Positions 22,632-59,178 of a DNA stretch of 64,000 nucleotides are shown piece by piece (the first letter of the stretch is position 1; each line of letters opens with the position of its first letter). The notes beneath the pieces are model-generated. The model saw only the letters and a list, made by a program, of their open reading frames with translations, was not told the origin of the DNA and ran no database searches. The position numbers and the translations under genes are program-made. The stretch is from Escherichia phage vB_EcoM_WFL6982, in sequence record MK373774.1; one strand, 5' to 3'.

Positions 22632-23775
22632 GGTCGTTTTCTATATCTGCTGCAGACGGAGCATCAGAAGTTTTAACCGGAACTTTAGTTGTTGCTTTGC
22701 AATTAATAAGGTCGTTAACAGCGTCATCAACTTCTTTAATAGAAGAGATAGCACCTAGTTTATATTTAGTTTCAATTGCATCTCGGAAAGGTTTGTGTTT
22801 AAACAAAGGTCCCCAGAATTCTACACAATCAGTAGCTTTAGCACGCCACGATTTCTCTTCACGAATCATTTCGCCTGTTTCTTCGTCAAGGAATTCACGA
22901 GCATACCAACCAGCTTTAGGCTTAACTACAAAACCAATTTCAGTTGCCATTTCTAGCAAGCCACTGAATGGGTCGATACCACCATCGAAATTAACCGTGA
23001 TCGGGAAAGTAGATTTCTCTTTAACTGTACGAGATTTTTCTGCTTTCAACGTGAAGTCATAACCGGTCAATTCTGTACCTTCTTTAACCTGACGTTTAGA
23101 GATAAAGAATACAGTGTTAGCAGAATAAAGAATACCTGTACCACCGCCCATAATCTCTTTAGGATACAATCCGCCAATTTCCATTGCGGTATGGTTAATT
23201 GCAACACACGGAATATCTTTAATAGTCAGATACGGGGTCACAATACGGAAAAGAGATTTAAGTGCCTTAGCACGAGACATATCACCTACAACTTTCTCGT
23301 TCAATGCATCTTCAGTTTCTTTCTTAGATGCAGTATTACCGATTGAATCGATAAAGATAATAACTTTATCACCGCGTTCAATCGCGTCAAGCTGATTAGT
23401 CATATCAACTTTAAGTTGTTCGACTGACTGAATTGGTGTATGAACTACACGGTCTAAATCAACACCCATTGAACGAAAATAAGATTCTGAAGCACCAAAT
23501 TCTGAATCATAGAACAAACAAATTGCATCTTTATATTTCTTCATATATGCTGCAACCATAGTTAGTCCAAACAACGTTTTAAAGTGTTTAGAAGGAGCAG
23601 CAAAAATAGTCAAGCCTGATTGCAATCCTGCATTCAGAGCACCACCTAATGCAATATTCAACATCGGAATACGAGTAGGGACTTCATCACGATTATTAAA
23701 CAGCTTAGACTTAGTCAAGTCTGCAGTCATTTTAGAAGTAGAAGCTTTAATCAGACGAGATTTTAAATCAGACAT
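22603..23775 (-). CDS. uvsX: UvsX recombinase (RecA/Rad51-like)
   Basis: 390 aa; MSDLKSRLIKASTSK.. near-colinear with T4 UvsX as recalled. Confidence 0.95.
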   Translation of the reverse strand: MSDLKSRLIKASTSKMTADLTKSKLFNNRDEVPTRIPMLNIALGGALNAGLQSGLTIFAAPSKHFKTLFGLTMVAAYMKKYKDAICLFYDSEFGASESYFRSMGVDLDRVVHTPIQSVEQLKVDMTNQLDAIERGDKVIIFIDSIGNTASKKETEDALNEKVVGDMSRAKALKSLFRIVTPYLTIKDIPCVAINHTAMEIGGLYPKEIMGGGTGILYSANTVFFISKRQVKEGTELTGYDFTLKAEKSRTVKEKSTFPITVNFDGGIDPFSGLLEMATEIGFVVKPKAGWYAREFLDEETGEMIREEKSWRAKATDCVEFWGPLFKHKPFRDAIETKYKLGAISSIKEVDDAVNDLINCKATTKVPVKTSDAPSAADIENDLDEMEDFDE

Positions 23776-23873
23776 TGTATTTTTCCATAGGCATCATTAT
23801 ATTTTACTCATGTTTAAAAGATAAGATGATTATATACTAAGAGTTATACAGCATTTAAAACTTTAAATGGCTC

Positions 23874-24422
23874 TTAACGAGCCCATTTAATGATTTCTGT
23901 AATCAAATTATTACGTTCGCTTGCATTAAATCCTATAACTTTGTTAGAACCATCATGATTAAGTAATTGATACGTTTGGATTTTGTTATGAATTGCAAAC
24001 TCTTCAAAATGTGAAATGACTGTATTAAAACCGAATGAAGACAAAGTAATAAGGTCGTCTTCAAAACTTTCAGTCATTTCGTTACGTGTTAAAATAATTG
24101 TGAACACATCATGGTTTTGGCAAAGACGAACATAATCCTGTTCATAAACGTCAAGAACCGAGTCCGCATCTTGTCGAATACGTCCATAAACCCAGTTACT
24201 AATATATCCACGGTCTAATAGATAAATCTTAGTAGGGTCTAAATAATTCAACATCGTTTCGAAACAGCCAACTTCATTTCGAGACTTAACATCGAAACGC
24301 CCATCAACTGTTCGTTTAGGGAAATCAATCTTTACATATCTTTCACTAATTTCCATTATGTCATTAATGAAAGTTGTTTTACCAGCATTATCCGGCCCGT
24401 CTACTAAAATAATTTTAGCCAT
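23874..24422 (-). CDS. P-loop nucleotide kinase, thymidylate-kinase-like
   Basis: 182 aa; P-loop LVDGPDNAGKTT resembles TMPK GxDGAGKTT; LDRGY resembles the TMPK DRY motif; occupies T4 beta-gt locus. Confidence 0.5.
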   Translation of the reverse strand: MAKIILVDGPDNAGKTTFINDIMEISERYVKIDFPKRTVDGRFDVKSRNEVGCFETMLNYLDPTKIYLLDRGYISNWVYGRIRQDADSVLDVYEQDYVRLCQNHDVFTIILTRNEMTESFEDDLITLSSFGFNTVISHFEEFAIHNKIQTYQLLNHDGSNKVIGFNASERNNLITEIIKWAR

Positions 24423-24423
24423 T

Positions 24424-25323
24424 TTATTCCTCGATTACGACATCTTCGTATTTAGGTATATTATACGGTGAAGAAATTAAAGCATTAAAGTAGATGAACT
24501 CACCAAGACCTGGATGGAATACTTCTTCAGGATTTTCGAAATATTGAATCTTCGGACGTCCTTTAAGAATTTGATAGTACTCAGTTTTAGTTGGATTAAA
24601 AATTCGAATCAGCGCTTCTTCAGGATACTTATTTCTGTCGAAACTATTATTTGGATCAGTTATATAAAGCGGTTGACCTAATTGAATTGCGCATTCAACC
24701 ACTTGTTCAAAACGATAGCATGGGTCACTAATTCGAAATGGATGAAAAATACCATCTAGATGAATAGGAGCCAAATCACCTACAAGACGCTGCATGACGG
24801 AAGGACGTATAACTTTCTGCGTTACGATAATCTTATTACCATCTGCACCTGCGTTAACCAGCACTTCTTTTTGACGTTCATTCAACACAGTAGTTTGAAG
24901 TGAACGATTAACAGACAACATGTCGGTTTTTAAGAATTCATCAATATAAAAACGTGGTTTATTAGGGTCTGCAGTGATATTGAAATTGAATTCTACATCA
25001 AAAGCGCCGTCATATCCAGTGATATCTGTGATTAGAAAATCACAATCATAATAAGCAATTAATGAATCAACCACAAATTCATTTTCAGACCAAAAATATT
25101 TACGAGTGTTATACGCGTTATCTTTATACCATAATGGAACAAACTTAAATTCTGGGAAAAGACGTTCACATTCTTTAATATCAGATGCATTACGTGGATA
25201 TGTAATCACATCACCCGGATTAGCACGGTGCAAATGAAGTTGGAAGTTGCCATCCTTAAGGATAGCATACTGTCCAGTTTCATAAGACCGCATACTCAAG
25301 ATAGGTACGCGGAAAATAGCCAT
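24424..25323 (-). CDS. hypothetical protein at beta-gt locus (function unknown, possible DNA-modification enzyme)
   Basis: 299-aa ORF between TMPK-like gene and gene 42; no recognisable motif. Confidence 0.55.
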   Translation of the reverse strand: MAIFRVPILSMRSYETGQYAILKDGNFQLHLHRANPGDVITYPRNASDIKECERLFPEFKFVPLWYKDNAYNTRKYFWSENEFVVDSLIAYYDCDFLITDITGYDGAFDVEFNFNITADPNKPRFYIDEFLKTDMLSVNRSLQTTVLNERQKEVLVNAGADGNKIIVTQKVIRPSVMQRLVGDLAPIHLDGIFHPFRISDPCYRFEQVVECAIQLGQPLYITDPNNSFDRNKYPEEALIRIFNPTKTEYYQILKGRPKIQYFENPEEVFHPGLGEFIYFNALISSPYNIPKYEDVVIEE

Positions 25324-26039
25324 TAGTCAAGGAATCCTTTAACATAATCAAAATCACGTTCAAACACATGGGCACTTACCATGGTATGAGTATAATCACC
25401 AACTTCTACACCACATTCGTTAGCGATATAATGAAGTAATTTTCCTTGGAGATAAAAATCCAACTGCATAACAACAGCACAGTTCTGGGAACGCATATGA
25501 CAGTGGGTATAAAGCTTACCGTCACGAATATAATAAGTCACTGAGTCAGTACATGGATATTCAAGCGTTTCGTCCGAATCAAGCAAAGCCTGATCAGAAC
25601 TTTCTAGAATTTGGAACACAACTCTTCGGGAGTTAGGCTTCTCTTTAAGTTCTTTTAGAAGAGCTGGTAATTGGGCCGCAATGCGAGGACCATAGAAAGT
25701 GTTGAAGTTCGCCGGCAAAACATCTGATTTTGGTTTAGAAATAAATTTAGCGACATTAGGATATGCCTTAAACGCTTCTTCTGCGTTGGTACCACCAGAA
25801 ATCATAAACTTCCAGAAGTCTTCGGCATATTCATAAGAGATGCGGTTAATACGTGGGTCAGTCATTTTGAATGATGATGGAGTGTCAACAACTACTGTCA
25901 TAGACCCAATTTCATTACAACGTCCAATACGAGAATCAGTTACGAATTCCGGGTTTTCTAAAATTTCACGATTGACTGCTTTAAATGCGGTTTGAAAATC
26001 TGCGGCTTTGATATATTTCATTGTGTTATGTTTTCCCAT
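25323..26039 (-). CDS. 42: dCMP hydroxymethylase (thymidylate synthase fold)
   Basis: 238 aa; TS-like fold with catalytic Cys context (YPCTD); T4 gp42 size and position. Confidence 0.85.
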   Translation of the reverse strand: MGKHNTMKYIKAADFQTAFKAVNREILENPEFVTDSRIGRCNEIGSMTVVVDTPSSFKMTDPRINRISYEYAEDFWKFMISGGTNAEEAFKAYPNVAKFISKPKSDVLPANFNTFYGPRIAAQLPALLKELKEKPNSRRVVFQILESSDQALLDSDETLEYPCTDSVTYYIRDGKLYTHCHMRSQNCAVVMQLDFYLQGKLLHYIANECGVEVGDYTHTMVSAHVFERDFDYVKGFLD

Positions 26040-26081
26040 GTTTACCTCAATACAATTTATTATATACTCAATTCGTAAAGC

Positions 26082-26321
26082 TTATTTGAATTTCTTGACA
26101 ATGTTGATATAACGTAAAGCTTCAGCATCGATACTTCCAAGAACACTATGAAGAAATGCATCAGCGTAGTATTCCAATTGAACAGGTTCTTTAATCACTT
26201 TAGCCGCTTTAGTTTCAAACAGGCCCATAAGGGCCTTTTTAAGAATTTGTTCGTTAGTGTTCAGTTTAATAGTCAAAATCTCTTCATTAAGTTGGTGATT
26301 AAAAGTTTTTCTAGAAATCAT
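26082..26321 (-). CDS. hypothetical protein
   Basis: 79-aa ORF, ATGA overlap with upstream gene. Confidence 0.45.
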   Translation of the reverse strand: MISRKTFNHQLNEEILTIKLNTNEQILKKALMGLFETKAAKVIKEPVQLEYYADAFLHSVLGSIDAEALRYINIVKKFK

Positions 26322-27487
26322 TCCGGGTACCTCAGAGCGTCATCAGAGTTAGTTATATCAATAATAGATATAGAGTTTTCTGCTAACCCGTTTTTAGATA
26401 ATTGACGTTTATAATATCTTTCACAATATGTACACGTTGATCCACAGATTTCATTAGCACAATCAAAATCTGGATGTCTGAACCACCTTTTTTCTAAAAA
26501 GCCATCTAACAAAGAGGTTTCAATATTTACTGTATGTGAAAACTCAGTTTCATTTTCAAGAGTGAAAATAGTCTCTAAAGGCTTCCACAGTTCTAACAAA
26601 TTACCTTCAAACTTTTCAGAAGCGTATGCTTCAAGAACTTTCAAAATGTAGTCTGTGCTACCTGTACGTCCTGAAACTTTGAATTGAGTGATACCAATAT
26701 CATTATAAAGTTTCAAATCTTGAGGACGAACAAAACGAGTTCTCAACCAGTTAAATGGGTCTGTATCACGAGCTTTAATACAGTGCTGCATTGGATATCC
26801 GTTTAAGGATTTAGCATCATCAGCTGTAACATCAGTACTATGGAAAATATAGCAAGAGTCACGATAGCTACAATGTGTTGTATACCCTTTACCAGCGTTA
26901 GAACAGAACTCATTTACAAGAACTTCAAATATTATATTGTTCTTATTGCAAAACTCTGCTGCACGCTTCAGGAAAGAAACTGAACGGTTCTTATGAATTC
27001 CACAGCAGACCTTTTTGATATTGTATTGGTCATGTAAGTATTTTATTTGAGTTACAGCATCGACATGTAGAATTGTTGAAACTTCAATCTCAATGTCTTT
27101 ATTGACTTCACGAACAATTTCCATAACAACAGGGTTAGCGATAGTAATACGCCATACGCCTATTGACCAAAGATACTGAACATAATCCTGAATAGCTTTC
27201 TTCTTCCACTCGACTAGTTCTCTTTTTGAACCAGGATTTATCGTGTTGAGTGTATAGTTAAAGCAAATACCTAATTCGTTACAACGTTTAACGTAATCTT
27301 CTAACATCTTTTTGTCGACGTCAGGAAGCCTAAAATCAGGTCTGGCTGCTACAAAAGCCATTTCTCTTGTAGAGCCGTATACTTCGTTTATCAAGCTATT
27401 AGGATAAGTTTTATTGAGCTCTACGATTTTATCAAGAAGAGCTAAATCAAAATTCGTTCCGATTTTAAAAGTATTCATTTTTTGCAT
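26318..27487 (-). CDS. Cys-rich U32-like (peptidase U32 / putative Fe-S enzyme family) protein
   Basis: 389 aa; IEIEVS..YLHDQYNIKKV and EVLVNEFCSNAGKGYTTHCSY blocks resemble E. coli YhbU-type U32 proteins; C-terminal CANEICGSTCTYC cluster. Confidence 0.45.
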   Translation of the reverse strand: MQKMNTFKIGTNFDLALLDKIVELNKTYPNSLINEVYGSTREMAFVAARPDFRLPDVDKKMLEDYVKRCNELGICFNYTLNTINPGSKRELVEWKKKAIQDYVQYLWSIGVWRITIANPVVMEIVREVNKDIEIEVSTILHVDAVTQIKYLHDQYNIKKVCCGIHKNRSVSFLKRAAEFCNKNNIIFEVLVNEFCSNAGKGYTTHCSYRDSCYIFHSTDVTADDAKSLNGYPMQHCIKARDTDPFNWLRTRFVRPQDLKLYNDIGITQFKVSGRTGSTDYILKVLEAYASEKFEGNLLELWKPLETIFTLENETEFSHTVNIETSLLDGFLEKRWFRHPDFDCANEICGSTCTYCERYYKRQLSKNGLAENSISIIDITNSDDALRYPE

Positions 27488-27533
27488 CTCGCGTTAATTG
27501 ATGCGATGGTTTTTGCAGGTCTTACTTAAATTA

Positions 27534-27935
27534 TTATAGATTCGGTTTATATGATTTAAATGTTTCGAATTCGCCTTTATTCATAAGAGCTTTGAATTCG
27601 TCAGGACGCATAGCTTTGTCGTCGATAATCCAATCATATACTGGTTTATGTGTTAGCAAATTATGGTACTTCAAGCCAATGTTTGCCAAGTTCTGAATCA
27701 GACTTGGGAGAATGTCAATTGCTATACGACCAGGACCTACTGACTTCATACCGCGAGCAGTGTAAAGCGTTATGGTATGCCCTGCATCATACAGGGCATT
27801 AATGGCAGACACCATTTCGACGTCTGGTTTGAAGTTCACGTAATCACGATTGTTATTCCACTCTGTTATACAATCATCGACATCAAAACAAAGATTAAGC
27901 ATGTTTTCTACACGGTGCATTAGATTCGTTCCCAT
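27534..27935 (-). CDS. small HAD-superfamily phosphatase
   Basis: 133 aa; HAD motif I FDVDDCIT, motif II T (LYTARG), motif III K...DD (KPVYDWIIDDK). Confidence 0.6.
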   Translation of the reverse strand: MGTNLMHRVENMLNLCFDVDDCITEWNNNRDYVNFKPDVEMVSAINALYDAGHTITLYTARGMKSVGPGRIAIDILPSLIQNLANIGLKYHNLLTHKPVYDWIIDDKAMRPDEFKALMNKGEFETFKSYKPNL

Positions 27936-29605
27936 TGATGAGTGATATCGCCACCGATTGGACGATAAGAAACACCAGTTTCTTTATCAGTTAGTACCCA
28001 TTTACCAGGATTTTTTGTAATCAGAGTAGCCGTTACAGGTTCTGCTACGTCATAACTAATAGAGCCGTCTTGAAGTACACGGCCCATGTTACGTAATTGC
28101 TTAGTCAGAAGTTCCATACCTTTATAATATGCAGCTACCGCTTTAAGTGGATTATTCTTGAAATAACCACCTAATGCAATCCAGATAATTGCCACTGCCA
28201 AATGATGATACTCGTTAAACGAACTCATCTTTCCATATTTGTAAACTAATGGATTGATGTTAATAGTCACATTACAAGTTGTTTCATCAATAGTAAACTG
28301 TCCCCAGGTCGGATTAGCATTGAATTCATCATAACCTGAAACAGCGTAAAGCACTTTAGCTTCATCGTACAATTTTGGCCCGTAAATCTTGGTTTCGCCA
28401 AAATATCCGCGAGGGTCGATAAACTTGACTTCGCCATCATCAGTAATCATAGTATTACTGAAGTTCGGGTCACCATGAATAACAGAGTACTGTCCCTGAG
28501 AACGATTATGATAACGAATAAGGTGTTCTAAAGCTTGTTTCAGCATTGGCTTCAGACGTCCAATCTTAGTGTAGTTCACATGTGTGATTTTACCAAATGA
28601 ATCAATCAATGGTTGAATGCTTTCACAACGATCAATAACTTTCGTATAGAACTCTTTAGTGAAATCACGGCGAACAGTTTCAGGACTTACAAAATACGTG
28701 TCTGTGCTGAATTTCAGTGCATCTAAAATTGCATCAACAATTTGTGGACGAGCAAGACTTGATTTGGATTTAATATATTCAAATGCCGGCTTACCTTTAA
28801 TGCGTTCCATTTCAAAGTTATTTTCATTAACAGAAACTAACTGAGGAACTGAATCTGATTTCACTTTCAAATACCACGAAATCTCATCTTTCTGAAGAGC
28901 TCGTCCCTGTTCGGTTAATGCGAATTTAGTTACAGTTTCTTCACCAATTTCAACTGCATTAAAACTACGATTAAGTTCACGAACTTCATGAGCTTTTTCA
29001 AGTTTAGGCATATCACCTAAATCAATTATATTCATAAGCTCTGATTTATTGAATGCGCCGCTGTAAAGGAATTCTACGAAATCACGTCCTTTGCAGTATT
29101 CATGAATTTCCTCATCGGTAGAACCCATATAGAATTCCCAGTCTTTGAACTGATAAATTCCTACAACATTACCACCTGTTGAACCTACGTTAGTGATATT
29201 TTCACCGTCGAAATTATACCGACATTCGTCACCCTTAACATAGATTGCGTTAACATTCCAAGACCATGAACCAAAATCAGGAATAATATCACACCAGTTA
29301 ACAATTACATTATGGCCGTCTAAATCTTTGTGTAATTTAGCAAGAGCATAAGCAGAACCGTACGCTTCATCAACTGTACGAATAGTCACATTGAACCCTT
29401 CTTGCTCACAATAAGCTCGAACAGTTTCAGCAAATTTTGAATGAACTACTACAATAATTTCATCTGCGCCAAGGTCAGAATAAATTGTATACAAATTGCT
29501 CAGAATAGTGTCTTGTTTATAGTTAACAAGCACCTTAGGAATATGATGCGTTATTGGATATAAACGAGTCGCCAGTCCAGCACCAAGAATAACAGCTTTT
29601 TTCAT
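27920..29605 (-). CDS. bifunctional sugar-1-phosphate nucleotidyltransferase / sugar kinase (APH/choline-kinase fold)
   Basis: 561 aa; N-terminal AVILGAGLATRLYPIT..PKVLV nucleotidyltransferase signature; C-terminal kinase motifs IHGDPNFSN and FIDPRG. Confidence 0.7.
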   Translation of the reverse strand: MKKAVILGAGLATRLYPITHHIPKVLVNYKQDTILSNLYTIYSDLGADEIIVVVHSKFAETVRAYCEQEGFNVTIRTVDEAYGSAYALAKLHKDLDGHNVIVNWCDIIPDFGSWSWNVNAIYVKGDECRYNFDGENITNVGSTGGNVVGIYQFKDWEFYMGSTDEEIHEYCKGRDFVEFLYSGAFNKSELMNIIDLGDMPKLEKAHEVRELNRSFNAVEIGEETVTKFALTEQGRALQKDEISWYLKVKSDSVPQLVSVNENNFEMERIKGKPAFEYIKSKSSLARPQIVDAILDALKFSTDTYFVSPETVRRDFTKEFYTKVIDRCESIQPLIDSFGKITHVNYTKIGRLKPMLKQALEHLIRYHNRSQGQYSVIHGDPNFSNTMITDDGEVKFIDPRGYFGETKIYGPKLYDEAKVLYAVSGYDEFNANPTWGQFTIDETTCNVTININPLVYKYGKMSSFNEYHHLAVAIIWIALGGYFKNNPLKAVAAYYKGMELLTKQLRNMGRVLQDGSISYDVAEPVTATLITKNPGKWVLTDKETGVSYRPIGGDITHQWERI

Positions 29606-29646
29606 GTTGAAGTCCTCATTGGTAAGTAGGAGTATTGTACACTATT

Positions 29647-29790
29647 CTAGTTAAAGCATTCATACTTTGCTTGTAGTCCAATCATAATCCATCCAATTAC
29701 AAGTGTTGGAATCATTACTGGAGCCGTTAAGCTCCAGTAGATAGTCATGACAAACATCAATAGTAAAAGTCCTATTGTTATTGCTTTCAT
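29647..29790 (-). CDS. small single-pass/hairpin membrane protein (possibly Imm-like)
   Basis: 47-aa hydrophobic ORF MKAITIGLLLLMFVMTIYWSL.., ATGA overlap with upstream SIS gene; not in ORF track. Confidence 0.4.
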   Translation of the reverse strand: MKAITIGLLLLMFVMTIYWSLTAPVMIPTLVIGWIMIGLQAKYECFN

Positions 29791-30422
29791 TGTTCGCCTC
29801 GTAACATGGCACCTAGTGCACCGCCTGGATGGAACTTAAGGAAATCATTAGAGGTAAATCCACGTTCAGACGAAAGGTTGATAGCGAACGTATCGATAAG
29901 CGCTAACAACAATGTAGTAGACATTGTCGGAGCTAAAGAGTTCTCGTCAACTTCTACCGCGATACCGGTACAGAACGTATAATCAAAAAGAGCTTCGTAT
30001 TCTTGTGGAATGTCAGGGTTACAATGTAACAGAATCTGTTTAACCTGAGGACGAATCATACGAAGATGTTTAGCAACACCTATCATTTCTTCAGTCTTAC
30101 CAGAACGACTGATGTGAACTAATACATCATTAGGTGCAATAAATCCTGCGTCACCATGAGAATAATGCCCAGTGTTCAAATACATGCTAGGAATACCTAG
30201 TGAAGCAAAAGTCTCGGAAGCTTTAGTTGCGATATTAGCGTTCTTACCAACACCTGTAATAATTACACGACTTTCATAATTACTCAGTCCAGGGCGACGA
30301 AGAGTTTCTAGAATAGCATTATAACGAGCAGGGTTTTGACTAATTACTTTAGCCATAGTGGCAAGAGAAGAAGCTTGTTTTATGATTGCGTCAATAGCGA
30401 TAGTGATTGGTGTAGTTTTCAT
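29787..30422 (-). CDS. SIS-domain sugar-phosphate isomerase, D-arabinose-5-phosphate isomerase (KdsD/GutQ-like, no CBS domains)
   Basis: 211 aa; RVIITGVGKN..HGD..ISRSGKT..LAPTMSTT..HPGGALG aligns block by block with E. coli KdsD SIS domain as recalled. Confidence 0.85.
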   Translation of the reverse strand: MKTTPITIAIDAIIKQASSLATMAKVISQNPARYNAILETLRRPGLSNYESRVIITGVGKNANIATKASETFASLGIPSMYLNTGHYSHGDAGFIAPNDVLVHISRSGKTEEMIGVAKHLRMIRPQVKQILLHCNPDIPQEYEALFDYTFCTGIAVEVDENSLAPTMSTTLLLALIDTFAINLSSERGFTSNDFLKFHPGGALGAMLRGEQ

Positions 30423-30462
30423 ATTTCTCTCATTTAATTAGTTTACCGTCCATGACATTATA

Positions 30463-33174
30463 TCAAAAATCGAACATATCGAACAGAGATGCTTTCTTCT
30501 CATAATCGAGTTTCGCTGCTGATGTGAATCCTTCAAGTGGTTTAATAAATGTCTTCTCAAGGAGAACCGTGTAGTCCATCCAATGAAGTACATCATCTTT
30601 GATTAAATCAGTGATTTCAGTACCAGAAGGCCATGCGATACATTTATCACCGAATGGGTTTCCTTCACGTAAAGGCAGAACATATACTTTTTCACCTTCT
30701 ACAACTTGTGGTGCATCGATATTACCTTTGATAGCCCGGTTATACGTCAGAATTCCACGAATATGGAACGGGCATTTAGGACCCGGGAATCCACCTACGT
30801 CGTATTTAGCAATGTTATTCGCAGAAGATACCGACGCGATGCTAATATAATTCAATTGACGGAATTCTTTTTCAAACTCTTTAAAATATTCTTGTAATGA
30901 TTCTTCACCTTCTTGAAGCATACGACGAATACATTCTTTAAGAGCTTTCTGTACTGCTTTAGGAGTCGAAGATTTCTGAGTCTCTAGACCCATGATTTTG
31001 AGTTTAGGCTCAGCGTAACGAGTACCTTCCATATCCCACACGTTTAATGCATAACGTTTCTTACCAGTCCAAAATCCGCCAATACCTTTAGAACCAAGCG
31101 GAGGCCCAGCGATAGCTTCTCGGTCCATGAACATTAAGTGTTGTTTATTGTTCATGTATTCACACATTTCACGGAAACCTCTATCAATAGCAGGTTCCAT
31201 ACGTTCACGAGCAAACTTATCTAAGAAGTCTACCCAATGGTTGGTATCACGGAATTTAGATTCACCAACCTTATCGATAATTTTATCAGCAGATACGTAA
31301 ATGGAGTCTGTATCACCATATAGAACGAAAGCTTCACCTTCTGTACCACAAACTTCATTCAGATATTCATTAACTTTACGTTCAATCCACTGTAAAGCCA
31401 TTTGCCCGAATGTTGTGATTGCAGTAGCATTACGCAAATCATAATAACGGAACCAAACGTTTCCAAGTGCACCATAAAGCGAGTTGATAAGCAATTTACG
31501 GTTAATTTGTGCAGTCATACCTGCAACTTCAGTACGTTGAGCTCTAAACAACATTTCATTAAGAGATTTAGCAGACAACTTTTTAATCTTTTCTTTAATC
31601 TCATCACTGAAGTCGAAACGATAATCAACATCTAATGGTTCGTCAACAGAAAGATTAGGATTATGCAATGCCTCTTTAATTATTTCGCCATTACGTTGAG
31701 CTGCAAGCATGTAACCTTTATGTTCTTTACGTTGATTAAAGACCTTAGTGATTTCAGTTGGAACTACACCATCACGGTCTTTATAATACATCATGCCGTT
31801 AGGAGAACAACTGTACACATCTGAAGGACGTTCAGCGATTGCGTTAATATAATCATGCAATGGAGCTACTTTAAACGTTCCTGCTATTGTTTCCGGGCTA
31901 ATATTCACTTGGCGAATAATACTTGGATACAGAGATGTAAGGTCGAAACTCATTACATATTTGTATCGATTTGGAATAGGTTCCTTAACAAAAGCGCCGG
32001 GATAAGGTTGAACCGGGTGAGAACGACCTTGTGGAATCACCTTGTTCTGCTCTTTAAGGCTATTAAAAATAATAGCATCCCATGTTTTAATTGGGCTAAA
32101 CACAGATTGAATCTGTATCTTAGCATAATAACCCATGTCCAAGCTCAAGTTGATGAACTGACGCTTAGAATCAATTTGCAATACACGATATACGTCGATA
32201 ATGTTATAAGAAATATATCGTTGGTGATTGCTTTCACGAAGCTTAGAAATAGGGCCGTCGTATTTCAGTTTGCCAACGTTCAATTCAAATTCTGAAATGT
32301 AATCCAGAGAATACGACGGTTGGTTCGTGAAAGAGAACTTTTTGTAAAGGTCAATGTAATCAAGAACAGAGATACCGAACAATGTAATGATTTCACGAGA
32401 ACCATACATGTTTTCGATAACTTTAACACGAGTTTTACGATGTGGTGATAAACGTTTCGCAGTAGATTCGCCAAAAATATTCTTGATTCGGTTATACACA
32501 TATGGAATATCAAATGACTCAACGTTCCATCCAGTCAAAATGACAGGAGTTTTCTGTTGCCAGAAGTTGAGATATTCCATCAACAATTCTTTTTCGTTAT
32601 CGAACGGCATATAAATGATTTTATCGATAATTTCGGATGGAACTTCATCGCCGCCTTGTTCTTGAAGCTTAGCCGCAATTTCGATAGACCATTCTTCTAC
32701 ATTACCATATGGAGAATTCAATAGATCAAATACGTAGAACCTGTCGTCAATTGAGTCATAATGGGTGATAGCATCAATTGGATGTTTTGCTTGTGACGGC
32801 TCAGGGAACCCGTCCGGAGATGTTACTTCGATGTCGAAGTTAGCCACACGAATTTTTGTATGGTCGTATTTGATTTCATAGTTATAAGTGTCAGACAAAT
32901 ACGCCAATTTGAAATCGTCCATGCCAAGTGCTTCAAGTCCGATATCTTCCATGCGTTTAATCCATTGGGAGGCATCACGCATATTAGCGAACAACTTACG
33001 AGTACACGGCTTACCGTAGATATCGAAATATTTCGTAGCCTGACTTTCTGGACAATGAGCAAACAGTGATGGTTTATATTCTACTTCACGAGTACGTTCA
33101 CGGCCATTAGAATCGATGTAACGTTCAAAAATTGAATCACCAATCTGTTCAACCGTTAAGTAAAATTCTTTCAT
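30463..33174 (-). CDS. 43: DNA polymerase (family B) with 3'-5' exonuclease
   Basis: 903 aa; exo motifs FDIE, YNIIDV; pol motifs DxxSLYPS, YGDTDS; sequence recognised as RB69-type gp43 from memory. Confidence 0.97.
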   Translation of the reverse strand: MKEFYLTVEQIGDSIFERYIDSNGRERTREVEYKPSLFAHCPESQATKYFDIYGKPCTRKLFANMRDASQWIKRMEDIGLEALGMDDFKLAYLSDTYNYEIKYDHTKIRVANFDIEVTSPDGFPEPSQAKHPIDAITHYDSIDDRFYVFDLLNSPYGNVEEWSIEIAAKLQEQGGDEVPSEIIDKIIYMPFDNEKELLMEYLNFWQQKTPVILTGWNVESFDIPYVYNRIKNIFGESTAKRLSPHRKTRVKVIENMYGSREIITLFGISVLDYIDLYKKFSFTNQPSYSLDYISEFELNVGKLKYDGPISKLRESNHQRYISYNIIDVYRVLQIDSKRQFINLSLDMGYYAKIQIQSVFSPIKTWDAIIFNSLKEQNKVIPQGRSHPVQPYPGAFVKEPIPNRYKYVMSFDLTSLYPSIIRQVNISPETIAGTFKVAPLHDYINAIAERPSDVYSCSPNGMMYYKDRDGVVPTEITKVFNQRKEHKGYMLAAQRNGEIIKEALHNPNLSVDEPLDVDYRFDFSDEIKEKIKKLSAKSLNEMLFRAQRTEVAGMTAQINRKLLINSLYGALGNVWFRYYDLRNATAITTFGQMALQWIERKVNEYLNEVCGTEGEAFVLYGDTDSIYVSADKIIDKVGESKFRDTNHWVDFLDKFARERMEPAIDRGFREMCEYMNNKQHLMFMDREAIAGPPLGSKGIGGFWTGKKRYALNVWDMEGTRYAEPKLKIMGLETQKSSTPKAVQKALKECIRRMLQEGEESLQEYFKEFEKEFRQLNYISIASVSSANNIAKYDVGGFPGPKCPFHIRGILTYNRAIKGNIDAPQVVEGEKVYVLPLREGNPFGDKCIAWPSGTEITDLIKDDVLHWMDYTVLLEKTFIKPLEGFTSAAKLDYEKKASLFDMFDF

Positions 33175-44797: not shown

Positions 44798-45268
44798 TTA
44801 ATCATGTTTCCACACCCCATCGGTATTTGACCAAAGTCGCTGATTATCTGATCCTCGCCACAGCTTTTTAGTCGGAAGATTTTTCTCATACTTCCCATCA
44901 ATAATAACATCAACATATTTAAGCATTTCTAGCTGTTTAATATCTTCAAACTTATATCCTGTCCACAACCAAATGCTTTTATTAGGATAAAGATTTTTTA
45001 CTGTTTGAACAATGCAATGAATAACATCTCGGTTATCAGGATAGAGAGGGTCACCTCCGGTTATAGTTAATCCTTCTATATAATCATTATTCAAACATTC
45101 AATTAATTGTTCTAGTGTCTCTCCAGTGAATGGAATACCATTTCTAGCATTCCATGTTGATTTATTATAACACCCTTCGCATTTATGCAAACAACCCGTA
45201 ACGAAAAGAACGACCCTGCAACCAGGGCCATTCACAAAATCGCAAGGATAAAATCTATCATAATTCAT
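44798..45268 (-). CDS. nrdG: anaerobic ribonucleotide reductase activating protein (radical SAM)
   Basis: 156 aa; Cys-rich N-terminal block (GCLHKCEGC); T4 NrdG size and position. Confidence 0.9.
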   Translation of the reverse strand: MNYDRFYPCDFVNGPGCRVVLFVTGCLHKCEGCYNKSTWNARNGIPFTGETLEQLIECLNNDYIEGLTITGGDPLYPDNRDVIHCIVQTVKNLYPNKSIWLWTGYKFEDIKQLEMLKYVDVIIDGKYEKNLPTKKLWRGSDNQRLWSNTDGVWKHD

Positions 45269-47082
45269 TGGTGTTTAACCCTATGCATGATTTCTTTATT
45301 TTTACCGAGATTAAATCCGCGTTCGTTCGGATTTCCCAAATATCCGCATGTTCTTCTTATGGTGTTCATCTTTTTAGGATCAGTTTCTCCGCAAACTGAA
45401 CAAACAAATCCGTTTTCAGTAGGAGTCATTTCATGGGTACTTCCACATGTAAAACATTTATCTACTGGCATATTAACACCAAAATAATCTAAATGTTGTG
45501 CAGCATAATCCCAGACGGCCTCAAGTCCCTTTAAATTGTTTTTCATATCTGGAAGTTCAACATAAGAAATGTGACCGCCTGTCGCAATGAAATGATACGG
45601 CGCTTCACGAGAAATCTTTTCAAACGGAGTAATATTTTCTTCTACTGAAACATGGAAACTATTAGTGTACCAGCCTTTATCGGTAACATCTTTTACACTT
45701 CCATATTTTTCTGTATCGAGTTTACAGAAGCGATAACAAAGGTTTTCAGCAGGAGTAGAATACAAGCTAAAAGCAAATCCAGTTCTTTCGGTCCACTGTT
45801 TAAGATGAGCATTCATTTTAGTTAAAATTTCTTGCCCAATATCACGACCGACAAGAATATTCAATTCGTGAATACCAATGTATCCTAAAGACACTGAACT
45901 TCTACCGTTTTTAAATAACTCAATTATATCGTCATCAGGTTTAAGGCGAACCCCGAATGCACCTTCTTGGTAAAGAATAGGAGCAACAGTCGCTTTAACT
46001 CCTTTTAAGGAACTAATTCTACACATCAAAGCTTCAAAACACAGGTCCATTCGTTCGTTAAATAGCTCAACAAATTTCTGTTCATTGAACTGTGTTCCAA
46101 TATAAGAATCTAACGCAATACGAGGAAGATTCAGTGTTACAACACCAAGATTATTACGTCCATCAAGAATTTCATTACCAGTCGAATCTTTCCATACGCT
46201 CAAGAAACTACGGCAACCCATTGGAGAAACTGGAACTGAAGAACCGGTAATAGCTTTATTATTCTTAACCGAAATAATGTCAGGATACATTCTTTTGCTT
46301 GCACATTCTAACGCAAGTTGTTTAATATCATAGTTTGGATCATCTTTATAAAGATTAACACCTTCTTCAACAAACATAACAAGTTTAGGAAAAATAGGAG
46401 TTATTCCATCACGACCAAGACCTTTAATGCGGTTTTTAAGAATTGCCTTCTGAATCATTCGTTCAGTCCAGTCAGTTCCCGTACCAAATGTAATTGTTAC
46501 AAAAGGCGTTTGTCCGTTTGAACTAAAGAGAGTATTTACTTCGTATTCATAAGCTTGGAATGCGTCATAGACATCTTTTTCTGTTTTAGATTGAGCATAA
46601 TTCAACGCATCAGCGATTTGCCATTTTTCTGCATCTTCAACATGTTTAGCGTATGTGCGTTTAACATAAGGAGAAAGAACTTTATCTACATTCGCAAATG
46701 TAGTTCCGCCATACTGGTGTGAAGCAACTTGTGCGGTAATTTGTGCCATAATTGCAGTAGCAACACCAATAGATTTAGGCGTTTCAATTTGAGCATTGCC
46801 TAATTTAAATCCATTCTCAAGCATCCCCTTTAAATCGACTAAACAGCAATTGGTAAACGGAAGAGCAGGAGAATAATCAATATCATGCATGTGAATGATT
46901 CCGCTTTCATGCGCATTCATAATAAAAGACGGGACCATATTTTTGGCAATGTGTTTAGACACAATACCAGCCATAAGGTCCCGTTGAGTTGGAAAAACAC
47001 GAGAATCTTTATTAGCATTCTCGTTCAAAAGATCTTTATTAGTTTTATAAATTAATCCTTCAATTTCTTTTTCAATTTTCAT
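45265..47082 (-). CDS. nrdD: anaerobic ribonucleoside-triphosphate reductase (glycyl radical enzyme), no intron
   Basis: 605 aa; C-terminal Zn site CxxC..CxxC and glycyl-radical motif RTCGYLG; continuous ORF. Confidence 0.95.
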   Translation of the reverse strand: MKIEKEIEGLIYKTNKDLLNENANKDSRVFPTQRDLMAGIVSKHIAKNMVPSFIMNAHESGIIHMHDIDYSPALPFTNCCLVDLKGMLENGFKLGNAQIETPKSIGVATAIMAQITAQVASHQYGGTTFANVDKVLSPYVKRTYAKHVEDAEKWQIADALNYAQSKTEKDVYDAFQAYEYEVNTLFSSNGQTPFVTITFGTGTDWTERMIQKAILKNRIKGLGRDGITPIFPKLVMFVEEGVNLYKDDPNYDIKQLALECASKRMYPDIISVKNNKAITGSSVPVSPMGCRSFLSVWKDSTGNEILDGRNNLGVVTLNLPRIALDSYIGTQFNEQKFVELFNERMDLCFEALMCRISSLKGVKATVAPILYQEGAFGVRLKPDDDIIELFKNGRSSVSLGYIGIHELNILVGRDIGQEILTKMNAHLKQWTERTGFAFSLYSTPAENLCYRFCKLDTEKYGSVKDVTDKGWYTNSFHVSVEENITPFEKISREAPYHFIATGGHISYVELPDMKNNLKGLEAVWDYAAQHLDYFGVNMPVDKCFTCGSTHEMTPTENGFVCSVCGETDPKKMNTIRRTCGYLGNPNERGFNLGKNKEIMHRVKHQ

Positions 47083-47552
47083 TTTAAACTCTTTCTAAGC
47101 TGCTTTTTGAATGAAGCTATTAATTGTGTTTTAGTATCAGATTCATTATATTCAAATCCTCTTTGAAGCATCTCGGACATCATTTCCTCTTTACCTAGTC
47201 TTGAGAACTCTTTAGTTTTGTCTGGAACAAAATTAGGATGGATATTATTATCAGAATAATCTTGTTTCAAATAAGCAAGAAGAGATTCAAGCCATTCGAG
47301 GTAGTCGACATCACGACCTTTAAGACCAGAACGGTTGAACTTATGCTTCATTTGGCCTTCTGCTGCGTTGCACAGATTACAGAGTAACCCACGAACTCTA
47401 CCTGCTTTTGGCCCGTTTAATTCGTGGTCGTGGTCAAGATGGTTACCTTGAACATCAGGGTCTAATTCACGGTGGCAAATAGGACACTTACCGTTCTGTG
47501 CATCATAAAATTTTTGTTTTTCTTCTTTGTATAATTTGCCAGATAATAACAT
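47079..47552 (-). CDS. 49: endonuclease VII (Holliday junction resolvase)
   Basis: 157 aa; CPICHR..LDHDHEL..GLLCNLCN matches T4 gp49 as recalled. Confidence 0.92.
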   Translation of the reverse strand: MLLSGKLYKEEKQKFYDAQNGKCPICHRELDPDVQGNHLDHDHELNGPKAGRVRGLLCNLCNAAEGQMKHKFNRSGLKGRDVDYLEWLESLLAYLKQDYSDNNIHPNFVPDKTKEFSRLGKEEMMSEMLQRGFEYNESDTKTQLIASFKKQLRKSLK

Positions 47553-47780: not shown

Positions 47781-48194
47781 TTAACTTAAACGTCTTTCTA
47801 AATATTCAATGTATTCCGCTGCGGCTTGCATCAGATTACCTTCATAACCGTCATTATTTTCTTGGGCGGCTAATTTAGCTAAAGCATAAGAAATACGTTC
47901 ACCTTCGAATTCGCCAAGTCCACCATCACAAACTACTTGGTCAATTTCTTCGAGTTCATCTATTGAATGGGATTCCCAGAAGCACCAAAGAGAAGTATCA
48001 CGGTCATAGATGCAAAGTTTCTCACCTGTGTTCAACATCACTTCAATAATGCCATGGTCGCCATAACCATCTTCGGTAGTAGTACCAATTACCTTGATGA
48101 TCGTATCTTTCTTTAATTCAGGAAACTTGACTTGTAGTTCTTCATCTTCTTTAACAATCTTGAACCATTTACCGCGAGTTTCAGAAATATTCAT
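47781..48194 (-). CDS. hypothetical acidic protein
   Basis: about 137 aa from internal ATG (MNISETRGKWF..); ORF-track N-terminus overlaps upstream gene. Confidence 0.5.
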   Translation of the reverse strand: MNISETRGKWFKIVKEDEELQVKFPELKKDTIIKVIGTTTEDGYGDHGIIEVMLNTGEKLCIYDRDTSLWCFWESHSIDELEEIDQVVCDGGLGEFEGERISYALAKLAAQENNDGYEGNLMQAAAEYIEYLERRLS

Positions 48195-48195
48195 A

Positions 48196-48393
48196 TCAAT
48201 ATTCTCTATAAAAGTTACGATGAGAACGTTTAGCTTTGCGAAGCTGACGTTTAGTAGGACGAACTGTAAATGGTTGTCCAGAGAAAAAATTCGGATCGGT
48301 TTTAATAAGCAAATACCAATCATGCTTGCCATTTTTTAATAAACGGTACAATAATTTAACTTGCATAATAATCTCTTCCCATCTCCATATCAA
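48196..48393 (-). CDS. small protein with basic C-terminal RPTKRQ tail (family member)
   Basis: 65-aa ORF ending ..FTVRPTKRQLRKAKRSHRNFY. Confidence 0.4.
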   Translation of the reverse strand: MIWRWEEIIMQVKLLYRLLKNGKHDWYLLIKTDPNFFSGQPFTVRPTKRQLRKAKRSHRNFYREY

Positions 48394-58687: not shown

Positions 58688-59178
58688 TTAGGTTCCCAAT
58701 CAACAATCACAATTTCTAGTTTAGTGGAATATGTATCTAAAATCTCTTCGATGACGTCCCAGTTTCCACCGCCAATACCTGCACCAATTCTTGGCATATA
58801 AATTACAGGCTTTGTTATCTTATTCTTTCCGAATTCATTTAATTCTATTATACAATTCATTAAAGCAGAGTACTCAAAATTAGGTCCCGGCTCAAACTGT
58901 GTATAAAGATTAAAGCAATAAGCTTTATGGGTCTTAAAATATTTTTCATAAACCGAATAAGTCCCGAGTTTAGACTTGTCTCCGAATTCGGTTTGAAGTT
59001 TATCGGCTTCTAAAATTTTTGGATAAGCCTTTGCTAATTGGCCTGCTACACCGGCGCCCATTGTATGAAAACAATTACACCCATGAGCAATATTATTACC
59101 TTTAGAAAACAGGGCGACAATATCGCCCTTGATATAGTTTTTAATCACTTGCTGCAAGTCCTCTATTATAAGAGTCAA
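58684..59178 (-). CDS. macro-domain protein (ADP-ribose binding / processing)
   Basis: 164 aa; GDIV..N..MGAGVAGQL and IGAGIGGG blocks match macro-domain diphosphate-binding loops. Confidence 0.65.
   Translation of the reverse strand: MTLIIEDLQQVIKNYIKGDIVALFSKGNNIAHGCNCFHTMGAGVAGQLAKAYPKILEADKLQTEFGDKSKLGTYSVYEKYFKTHKAYCFNLYTQFEPGPNFEYSALMNCIIELNEFGKNKITKPVIYMPRIGAGIGGGNWDVIEEILDTYSTKLEIVIVDWEPK

Follow-up and report, generated by a model that had tools for sequence, protein, structure and literature searches.

The 64,000-nucleotide window analysed here, from Escherichia phage vB_EcoM_WFL6982 (MK373774.1), is 100% identical to Escherichia phage vB_EcoM_WFK (MK373775.1). It contains, at 26318-27487 on the minus strand, a 389-aa ORF that is 99.2% identical to RB69 gp50. 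The true start is probably the second ATG at 27478 (MNTFKIG...), which has a GAG approximately 10 nt upstream, matches the position where the homologues begin, and would give a protein of 386 aa. A first-pass annotation had described this ORF as a Cys-rich, U32-like protein embedded in a sugar-nucleotide cluster, and had named a match to the Peptidase_U32 profile as a test of that assignment. Pfam Peptidase_U32 (PF01136) matches residues 97-289 (26621-27199, minus strand) with E = 7.4e-11 and 42.2 bits, above the curated cut-off of 22.4, and PHROG 5757 'peptidase' matches end to end. The sequence blocks on which the annotation relied, IEIEVS, YLHDQYNIKKV and E188-V-x5-C195-x10-C206-S-Y, are present, as is the C-terminal Cys cluster. 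The observation is thus confirmed, with the two corrections that the start is probably downstream of the first ATG and that the surrounding cluster is the published arabosyl-5-hydroxycytosine DNA hypermodification cluster of RB69-like phages.

To determine whether the cysteines of this protein are conserved, we compared 121 family members that are 50-100% identical. C161, C195, C206, C212, C236, C343, C348, C352 and C355 are invariant in this set. Four of these residues form a core motif, C195-x10-C206-x5-C212-x23-C236 (26780-26905, minus strand). In an alignment with characterized E. coli U32 enzymes, C206, C212 and C236 fall in the same columns as UbiU C169, C176 and C193, which are [4Fe-4S] ligands (PMC6747719). 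The fourth Cys of the canonical motif (CX6CX15CX3/4C or a variant), expected 3 or 4 residues after the third, is absent, while C195 is a clade-specific invariant residue, giving a CX10CX5CX23C arrangement that is a candidate cluster site on sequence grounds alone. The motif persists with variable spacing in the wider clade, where C195 and C236 are present in 127-128 of 128 representatives. The second group, C343-x4-C348-x3-C352-x2-C355 (26423-26461, minus strand), is present in about 85% of the same 128 more distant representatives but has no aligned counterpart in the characterized E. coli enzymes. While C348-GST-C352-TY-C355 fits the spacing of a radical SAM motif, there is no Radical_SAM profile match and the motif lies in a C-terminal tail after the barrel rather than in its N-terminal part, and we rejected this reading.

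The genes flanking the U32 ORF are all encoded on the minus strand. Immediately beyond its stop codon is a gp49-like ORF of 79 aa (26082-26321), whose start overlaps the U32 stop (ATGA). This ORF occupies the slot where most other lineages carry a chorismate mutase, but it is not itself a chorismate mutase: BLASTP found no similarity, hhalign gave a probability of 0.5%, and the AlphaFold model is a low-confidence helical hairpin (pLDDT 65.6). It is frameshifted or truncated in several Mosigviruses. Next is a thymidylate synthase (TS) homologue (25323-26039; Pfam Thymidylat_synt), the homologue of RB69 gp48, for which flavin- and O2-dependent 5-hydroxy-dCMP (5hodCMP) synthase activity was shown experimentally, including by 18O2 labelling (PMC13326640). 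It is followed by DNA arabosyltransferase 1 (24424-25323; RB69 gp46:47 homologue; PMC13326640, Table 1) and a thymidylate-kinase-like nucleotide kinase (23874-24422; RB69 gp45 homologue). On the other side of the U32 gene are a HAD phosphatase (27534-27935; AfhF-like, RB69 gp51), a bifunctional sugar-1-phosphate nucleotidyltransferase and kinase (27920-29605; AfhE-like, RB69 gp52:53) and an arabinose-5-phosphate isomerase (29787-30422; RB69 gp55). A promoter and terminator scan of 23700-30600 gave counts at the level of shuffled sequence (25 found against 26 expected). Elsewhere in the window, at 44798-47082 on the minus strand, are NrdG (44798-45268) and NrdD (45265-47082), the strictly anaerobic class III ribonucleotide reductase and its activase (Pfam NRDD 571.6 bits, Gly_radical, and Fer4_12 164 bits), showing that the phage is equipped to replicate in anoxic cells.

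To place the protein within the U32 superfamily we turned to structure prediction and profile comparison. A search of PDB sequences with the ORF found nothing at E ≤ 1. However, the predicted structure (pLDDT 93.4) returned 5D88, the TIM-barrel structure of a U32 'peptidase', as its top structural hit. The protein could not be assigned to any characterized subfamily: NCBIfam UbiU scores 18.4 bits against a cut-off of 440, and the family HMM scores 15.9 bits against TrhP, 10.6 against RlhA, 7.2 against UbiU and -1.5 against UbiV. The clade profile finds only 1,714 proteins among 1.84 billion at E ≤ 1e-3, and the phage proteins therefore represent a separate, mostly viral clade. The additional C-terminal domains of TrhP and RlhA are lacking, as only PF01136 is detected and both E. 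coli proteins extend far beyond the phage protein in the alignment. There is also no TS profile match on the U32 ORF.

Examination of gene neighborhoods in other phages revealed a link between the U32 gene and prephenate supply. In Serratia phage LC53 the U32 gene (44.5 bits against PF01136) overlaps a true type II chorismate mutase, the enzyme that makes prephenate (CM_2, 44.6 bits against a cut-off of 27). A tblastn search finds such chorismate mutases in 54 of 50,697 phage records, and in every listed record the match lies beside a TS homologue or a peptidase (U32) gene, or in a phage group that carries U32. The adjacency survives three gene orders: U32-chorismate mutase-TS in LC53, chorismate mutase-U32-TS in L010 (one of the phage loci compared), and TS-glycosyltransferase-kinase-U32-chorismate mutase in Shewanella phage Thanatos-1. 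In distant phages U32 sits next to DAHP synthase (237 bits) or DAHP-synthase/chorismate-mutase fusions with both domains above the Pfam cut-offs. This window, like other Mosigviruses, has no chorismate mutase; the best tblastn hit, with E = 0.006 at 58712-58879 on the plus strand, is probably due to chance.

We next asked whether U32 occurs without the known hydroxylase. In 54 loci, the TS-type 5hodCMP synthase is near U32 in 16/16 T4-like loci and 0/38 distant loci, whereas homologues of arabosyltransferase 1 are near U32 in 16/16 and 26/38, and AfhE-like genes in 16/16 and 17/38, respectively; nucleotide kinases are also found at distant loci. None of 31 distant U32 viral contigs appears in a TS scan that reached 33% identity and recovered all 15 T4-like contigs, although absence of TS was assessed only within 7 kb and by this motif-seeded scan of incomplete contigs. 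A recurring cassette of MazG-like, Tmk-like kinase, glycosyltransferase and U32 genes puts U32 in the position that T4 gp42 holds. In some distant loci, however, the neighbors (dCMP deaminase, UDG) would fit a uracil substrate as well as a cytosine one.

The distribution of the two genes follows oxygen lifestyle. The TS homologue occurs in 373 phage records, including 57 Acinetobacter and 20 Rhizobium records. U32 occurs in 221 records; every host named in the search output is an Enterobacterales genus or Shewanella, and no Acinetobacter or Rhizobium appears. U32-only copies in about 100,000 species genomes number 8 and sit in assemblies of anaerobes, namely Erysipelotrichales, Lachnospiraceae, Romboutsia (two), Bacillota, Tannerella, Phocaeicola faecalis and BRC1 assemblies. 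This correlation rests on a few independent phage lineages, and binning of metagenome-assembled genomes is a poor guide to phage hosts. U32 is also not obligatory in phages of facultative anaerobes, as about 40 Escherichia phage records have the TS homologue without a U32 match (176 against 136) and the Dhakavirus Bp7 cluster that we inspected lacks U32. Where present, U32 is the most conserved protein of the cluster, with 79-89% identity across phage genera against 65-85% for the DNA polymerase.

Considering these observations together, we propose that the ORF encodes an iron-sulfur enzyme that hydroxylates C5 of a deoxycytidine nucleotide, most likely dCMP, without O2, a reading to which we assign a probability of roughly 0.6. 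Every characterized U32 protein is implicated in O2-independent, prephenate-dependent hydroxylation, two of them at C5 of a pyrimidine (PMC5727448, PMC6599085, PMC10990095), and the modified base of RB69-type phages is 5-hydroxycytosine (PMC13326640), whose hydroxyl group is the anchor for the protective arabinose sugars. Prephenate would be the oxygen donor, as for RlhA (5-hydroxycytidine in rRNA), TrhP (5-hydroxyuridine in tRNA) and UbiU/UbiV, and the conserved Cys sites would relay the two electrons removed from the base. The product, 5-hydroxy-dCMP, would enter the known pathway through nucleotide kinases, incorporation by the phage polymerase and arabosylation on DNA. In this view the enzyme would be the anaerobic counterpart and back-up of the adjacent TS-type synthase, which takes its oxygen from O2, and would let the phage fully modify its DNA across the whole oxygen range that its gut host experiences. 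While U32 membership, Cys conservation, gene linkage and distribution are established by our analysis, the substrate, the use of prephenate, O2 independence and Fe-S binding are inferred; support is only indirect for the use of prephenate (conserved gene adjacency in other phages) and for O2 independence (distribution by host oxygen lifestyle, and NrdDG in the window). Similarity to the characterized enzymes is only at the superfamily level, making transfer of function weak, and no U32 protein has yet been shown to hydroxylate anything in vitro (PMC10990095). We found no biochemical or genetic test of this protein in the literature consulted. Full-text searches on phage U32 proteins, prephenate, chorismate mutase and hydroxycytosine likewise found no prior statement of the hypothesis, although we cannot exclude that He et al. 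2026 (Nat Chem Biol, on the HY126 Afh genes) and Mahler et al. 2025 (Cell Host Microbe) discuss this gene. The 2026 NAR paper, which cites both, lists RB69p050 only as 'sugar or heterocycle reductase', and the Thanatos, Durham-collection, Thomas 2018 and Tevenvirinae papers do not discuss the hypothesis.

The interpretation offered in the first-pass annotation, that no step in a simple Ru5P to NDP-arabinose route needs such an enzyme and that it may perform an extra modification of the sugar or base, is only partly supported. The protein belongs to the U32 superfamily by profile and by predicted fold, and carries conserved Cys motifs consistent with Fe-S binding. The NDP-arabinose route does not need it, as Acinetobacter phages make tri-arabosylated 5-hydroxycytosine with the same isomerase, kinase/pyrophosphorylase and phosphatase genes but no U32 gene. 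The proposed extra modification is not supported, since the published structures of RB69 DNA (mono- and di-arabosyl-5-hydroxycytosine; PMC13326640) leave no extra chemical step to assign; the comparative evidence points instead to a second, O2-independent route to the same base hydroxylation. The annotation did not take into account that the modified base is 5-hydroxycytosine, which is what makes a U32 enzyme meaningful here, because RlhA makes 5-hydroxycytidine in rRNA.

Alternative roles are less likely. The protein might be a redox helper, either an Fe-S electron-transfer protein serving the flavin-dependent 5hodCMP synthase or the 'sugar or heterocycle reductase' of Table 1 in PMC13326640, the only published functional label for RB69p050. 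It lies two genes from the TS homologue, has up to two Cys4 sites that could carry electrons, and electron transfer is the proposed role of the clusters in U32 enzymes. However, the 38 distant loci have no TS homologue nearby, gp48 with only a kinase makes 5hodC in E. coli, and Acinetobacter phages run the same flavin enzyme and arabinose pathway without U32. A reductase role also leaves the linkage to chorismate mutase and DAHP synthase unexplained, and the known product needs no reduced sugar or base. We consider it equally unlikely that the protein is a prephenate-dependent hydroxylase of a different substrate, namely cytosine already in DNA, dCTP or dCDP, or uracil nucleotides (5-hydroxy-dUMP). 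The characterized pyrimidine-directed U32 proteins act on polynucleotides, and at the distant loci L004-L006 the neighbors are dCMP deaminase and UDG-fused polymerases, which would fit uracil chemistry. In RB69-type phages, however, cytosine is completely replaced through the nucleotide pool (dCTPase plus a mononucleotide hydroxylase), the Tmk-like kinases and MazG-like pyrophosphatases next to U32 in distant phages fit a monophosphate substrate, and the T4-like arabosyltransferase partner acts on 5-hydroxycytosine. Slightly more doubtful is hydroxylation of host or phage tRNA (ho5U34) or rRNA (ho5C2501), which would tune translation during infection and be unrelated to DNA modification. TrhP and RlhA are the best-scoring characterized relatives, although weakly, and their dependence on prephenate would also explain the chorismate mutase linkage. 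Against this, the gene always sits in DNA-modification or nucleotide-metabolism cassettes in unrelated phage lineages, with DNA glycosyltransferases, NMP kinases, MazG/dUTPase-like genes, dCMP deaminase and NT5C; it lacks the extra C-terminal domains of TrhP and RlhA; and E. coli already has TrhP, TrhO and RlhA. Finally, although many phage records carry the annotation 'peptidase', 'collagenase-like protease' or 'peptidase U32', a peptidase or a non-functional passenger is very unlikely, as no catalytic peptidase role has held up for the family members studied since 2017, nine cysteines are invariant, the conservation of the protein rules out a decaying passenger, and the consistent nucleotide and DNA-modification context gives a protease no obvious target.

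A broader reading, which we regard as about as likely as not, is that phages carry a complete oxygen-independent route for hydroxylating DNA pyrimidines, consisting of a dedicated viral U32 clade plus, in many lineages, their own prephenate supply from chorismate mutase, DAHP synthase or fusions of the two. The two hydroxylases would partition by niche, with the TS-type enzyme only in phages of aerobes, both in phages of facultative anaerobes, and U32 only in phages of strict anaerobes. This would imply a large, unexplored set of glycosylated, and possibly methoxylated, 5-hydroxypyrimidine DNAs in anoxic habitats. If correct, the proposal would fill a gap in the published pathway, in which the only known route to 5-hydroxycytosine needs O2 although the hosts live largely without it and the phages carry anaerobic ribonucleotide reductase. 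It would also extend prephenate-dependent U32 hydroxylation beyond RNA and quinones to DNA precursors and to viruses, and give a reason why phages carry shikimate-pathway genes. U32 together with an Aat1-like glycosyltransferase would then mark hypermodified DNA in uncultured phages of anaerobes, and protection of phage DNA against restriction and CRISPR, which bears on phage therapy, may depend on oxygen and on host aromatic-amino-acid metabolism. U32 hydroxylases have resisted in vitro reconstitution because their substrates are ribosomal precursors, tRNAs or very hydrophobic quinones. A member acting on dCMP would be the first with a small soluble substrate and an ideal model enzyme, making the unresolved prephenate-dependent mechanism testable in vitro.

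Comparison with characterized systems shows what is shared and what differs. RlhA (YdcP), the E. coli 23S rRNA 5-hydroxycytidine-2501 synthase, has a U32 domain, needs conserved Cys residues for function, makes a 5-hydroxylated cytosine, and depends on Fe-S biogenesis and on prephenate (PMC5727448), but it is 653 aa long and acts on a ribosomal precursor, while the phage protein has a relocated fourth Cys and its own C-terminal Cys4 cluster and sits among DNA-precursor genes. The TrhP/TrhO pair for tRNA ho5U34 follows the same logic as that proposed here, with one prephenate-dependent U32 route and one O2-dependent route to the same C5-hydroxypyrimidine, and organisms carry one or both according to oxygen lifestyle (PMC6599085); our classes are TS-only, TS plus U32, and U32-only phages. 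Here the O2-dependent partner is a flavin-binding TS homologue rather than a rhodanese, the proposed substrate is a DNA precursor rather than tRNA, and the system is viral. UbiU-UbiV (with UbiT), the O2-independent ubiquinone hydroxylases, share the U32 fold and three of the four UbiU ligand positions, use prephenate as oxygen donor, and pair with the O2-dependent flavin hydroxylases UbiI/H/F (PMC6747719, PMC10990095), but they form a heterodimer with one cluster each and act on a lipid, whereas the phage protein is a single chain with two candidate Cys4 sites. The 5-hydroxy-dCMP synthases RB69 gp48, DLP3 gp80 and that of HY126 would make the same product in the same pathway, but have an unrelated fold and an experimentally demonstrated flavin- and O2-dependent activity (PMC13326640). 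The T4-type NrdAB and NrdDG reductases provide a precedent in the same phage genome for duplicate aerobic and anaerobic enzymes for one step of DNA-precursor synthesis, although with different chemistry (glycyl radical) and no sequence relationship. The closest solved structure, Mk0906 (PDB 5D88) from Methanopyrus kandleri (14% identity, 247 residues, function unknown), lacks the C-terminal extension that carries the Cys4 cluster of the phage protein.

The window is identical to the first 64 kb of Escherichia phage vB_EcoM_WFK (MK373775.1), an RB69-like Mosigvirus. The U32 ORF lies in a tightly packed minus-strand block between uvsX and the DNA polymerase gene. In order of transcription, the block encodes an arabinose-5-phosphate isomerase (29787-30422), a nucleotidyltransferase/kinase (27920-29605), a HAD phosphatase (27534-27935), the U32 ORF itself (26318-27487), a 79-aa ORF whose start overlaps the U32 stop (26082-26321), a thymidylate-synthase (TS) homologue (25323-26039), a glycosyltransferase (GT) of roughly 300 aa (24424-25323), and a thymidylate-kinase-like protein (23874-24422). 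The U32 ORF has two in-frame ATGs at 27478-27487. The homologues and the position of a GAG Shine-Dalgarno-like element favor the second (MNTFKIG), and thus database ORF lengths of 386-389 aa differ only by the choice of start. A recent study demonstrated that RB69 DNA carries mono- and di-arabosylated 5-hydroxycytosine, and that the TS homologue (gp48) makes 5-hydroxy-dCMP with a flavin and takes the oxygen from O2, as shown by 18O2 labelling (PMC13326640). The isomerase, kinase/pyrophosphorylase and phosphatase are proposed to make UDP-arabinose. In that study the U32 homologue (RB69p050, 99.2% identical) appears only in a table, without experiments or discussion, and with the guess 'sugar or heterocycle reductase'. 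While the authors note that U32-linked RNA pyrimidine hydroxylation exists, they do not connect it to this gene.

To determine how the phage protein relates to characterized U32 proteins we compared its family profile with UbiU, RlhA and TrhP, which returned scores of only 7-16 bits. Searching 1.84 billion representative sequences with the same profile identified 1,714 proteins, 487 of them with E <= 1e-30, and the family did not merge with the large cellular U32 families. All 54 genomic contexts that we sampled from the metagenome and viral collections look viral. The protein therefore belongs to a separate clade.

All characterized U32 proteins need prephenate. For UbiU/V it has been shown to be the oxygen donor, and expression of a stand-alone chorismate mutase restores the U32-dependent reactions (PMC10990095, PMC6599085, PMC5727448). 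In Serratia phage LC53 the U32 gene overlaps a bona fide type II chorismate mutase that lies between it and the TS homologue. A tblastn search found such chorismate mutases in 54 of 50,697 phage records. In every listed record the match lies beside a TS homologue or a peptidase (U32) gene, or in a phage group that carries U32; these are Serratia, Klebsiella, Yersinia, Enterobacter, Proteus, Erwinia, Edwardsiella, Providencia, Morganella, Pectobacterium, Kosakonia and Shewanella phages and Escherichia phage EcS1. The pair remains adjacent in three different gene orders. In distant phages U32 is next to a DAHP synthase (237 bits, against 63 for the KDO8P synthase model), and in others it is next to fusions of DAHP synthase and chorismate mutase. 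These phage-encoded fusions, in which both Pfam domains score above cut-off, were found in uncultured phages at the distant loci L041 (5411-6433), L044 (5321-6376) and L055 (8085-9203), and also at L042 and L046; one of the contigs is jumbo-sized. They represent shikimate-pathway auxiliary genes next to U32.

Mosigviruses, including this window, lack the mutase and would have to rely on host PheA and TyrA. They retain only the small gp49-like gene, the 79-aa ORF at 26082-26321 (minus strand), which is unrelated to the mutase and is translationally coupled to U32 through an ATGA overlap. The gp49-like gene evolves faster than U32 and is frameshifted or truncated in several Mosigviruses, including HY126. 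Its structure model has a pLDDT of 65.6 and does not define a fold. Related genes sit between U32 and the chorismate mutase in Yersinia phages and in Serratia 92A1. In the LC53 locus (5660-6004 of L001) the first ~20 residues of the 114-aa 'chorismate mutase' (RRINHTMNEL...) resemble the N-terminus of gp49 and TG1_051, suggesting that a deletion fused a gp49-like gene to the mutase. The ancestral order was probably U32-gp49-CM-TS. LC53 also has a NUMOD3 homing endonuclease (3854-4492 of L001) inserted between the phosphatase and U32, and homing endonucleases recur at this junction in six of the 16 T4-like loci.

To determine whether U32 occurs without the known hydroxylase we clustered all ORFs within 7 kb of U32 in 54 loci, comprising 16 T4-like and 38 distant loci. 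The TS-type 5hodCMP synthase is a neighbor of U32 in 16/16 T4-like loci and 0/38 distant loci. In contrast, arabosyltransferase-1 homologues are found in 16/16 and 26/38, AfhE-like sugar activators in 16/16 and 17/38, and SIS isomerases in 12/16 and 10/38 of the T4-like and distant loci, respectively. The arabosyltransferase-1 homologues in the distant loci are full-length matches (27% identity, E = 3e-14). A TS-profile scan of the viral collection recovered every T4-like U32 contig and reached TS homologues of 33% identity, yet hit none of the 31 distant U32 contigs. These phages keep the enzyme that needs a 5-hydroxyl acceptor, and U32 is its constant companion.

The distant loci contain recurrent cassettes. 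One has the order primase, unknown, MazG-like, Tmk-like kinase, GT, U32 and PolIII-alpha, which follows the same logic as the dCTPase, gp42, kinase and glucosyltransferase of T4, with U32 in the gp42 slot. A second consists of GT, SIS, AfhE-like, (DAHPS-CM), an unknown 200-aa protein and U32, and a third form contains a TET-associated glycosyltransferase, a dUTPase/DCD-like protein and UDP-galactopyranose mutase. A ~200-aa protein with no Pfam match lies immediately upstream of U32, or elsewhere in the cassette, in 16 of the 38 distant loci (within L039-L060, e.g. 13576-14178 in L053), and is a candidate partner. Contigs of 195-294 kb, plus two Romboutsia-binned MAG contigs (together L048, L050, L052, L053, L055, L056, L058, L115 and L119), share a block of two RimK-type ATP-grasp genes, three small unknown genes, U32, GT, AfhE-like, the unknown ~200-aa protein, a second GT type and another GT. 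This block looks like an elaborate, uncharacterized DNA glycosylation system.

The distribution of the two genes was next compared with the oxygen lifestyle of the hosts. The TS homologue occurs in 373 phage records, including 57 Acinetobacter and 20 Rhizobium records. U32 occurs in 221 records, all at least 80% identical; every host named in the output is an Enterobacterales genus or Shewanella, and no Acinetobacter or Rhizobium appears. An Acinetobacter cluster is colinear but lacks U32 and the mutase. Among about 100,000 species genomes only 8 carry the clade, namely MAGs of Erysipelotrichales, Lachnospiraceae, Romboutsia (two), an unclassified Bacillota, Tannerella and BRC1, and an isolate of Phocaeicola faecalis. 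The named groups are anaerobes, and we assume the same for the BRC1 and unclassified Bacillota MAGs. The resulting pattern of TS-only, both, or U32-only matches that described for TrhO and TrhP, although few independent lineages are involved and host assignment by MAG binning is unreliable. In addition, about 40 Escherichia phage records, including the Dhakavirus Bp7, have the TS homologue but no U32. The Bp7 cluster has the TS homologue, GT, AfhE-like and HAD genes, but no U32 and no detectable match to the arabinose-5-phosphate isomerase, and a P-loop kinase-like 178-aa gene sits in the U32/gp49 slot. The window itself encodes the O2-sensitive class III anaerobic ribonucleotide reductase on the minus strand, with NrdG at 44798-45268 and NrdD at 45265-47082; endonuclease VII (47079-47552) and PinA (47781-48332) lie next to them.

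Across genera, U32 is 79-89% identical to the protein of the window. This is higher than the DNA polymerase (65-85%), the gp41 helicase (65-74%), the TS homologue (72-82%) and the glycosyltransferase (48-72%).

The best-supported mechanism is an O2-independent, prephenate-dependent C5 hydroxylation of a deoxycytidine nucleotide, which would feed the same kinase, polymerase and arabosyltransferase pathway as the O2-dependent enzyme. The substrate, the cofactors and the O2 independence of this proposed reaction are inferences rather than biochemical results. We found no prior statement of this idea in the searchable literature, which did not extend to two directly relevant papers. The alternatives that U32 is a redox helper for gp48, acts on a different nucleotide or on DNA, or is an RNA hydroxylase are less consistent with the U32-only cassettes and the shikimate-gene linkage. 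The same applies to a protease.

Some members of the clade may serve other modifications. In L004-L006, a 466-kb contig and related contigs, U32 is placed directly after a dCMP-deaminase homologue and next to PolIII-alpha genes fused or adjacent to UDG domains, which hints at uracil-based rather than cytosine-based modification. A different conserved module is found in L113, L116, L117 and L118, loci from genomes of anaerobes that include the Phocaeicola faecalis isolate. It consists of a GP88-family protein, a guanylate-kinase/SAM-methyltransferase fusion (~430 aa), an unknown ~267-aa protein and then U32. In L113 there are also a deoxypyrimidine 5'-nucleotidase (NT5C), a radical-SAM/SPASM protein and a second U32 copy. 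By analogy with the conversion of ho5U to mo5U in tRNA, this module might make a 5-methoxy-pyrimidine nucleotide.
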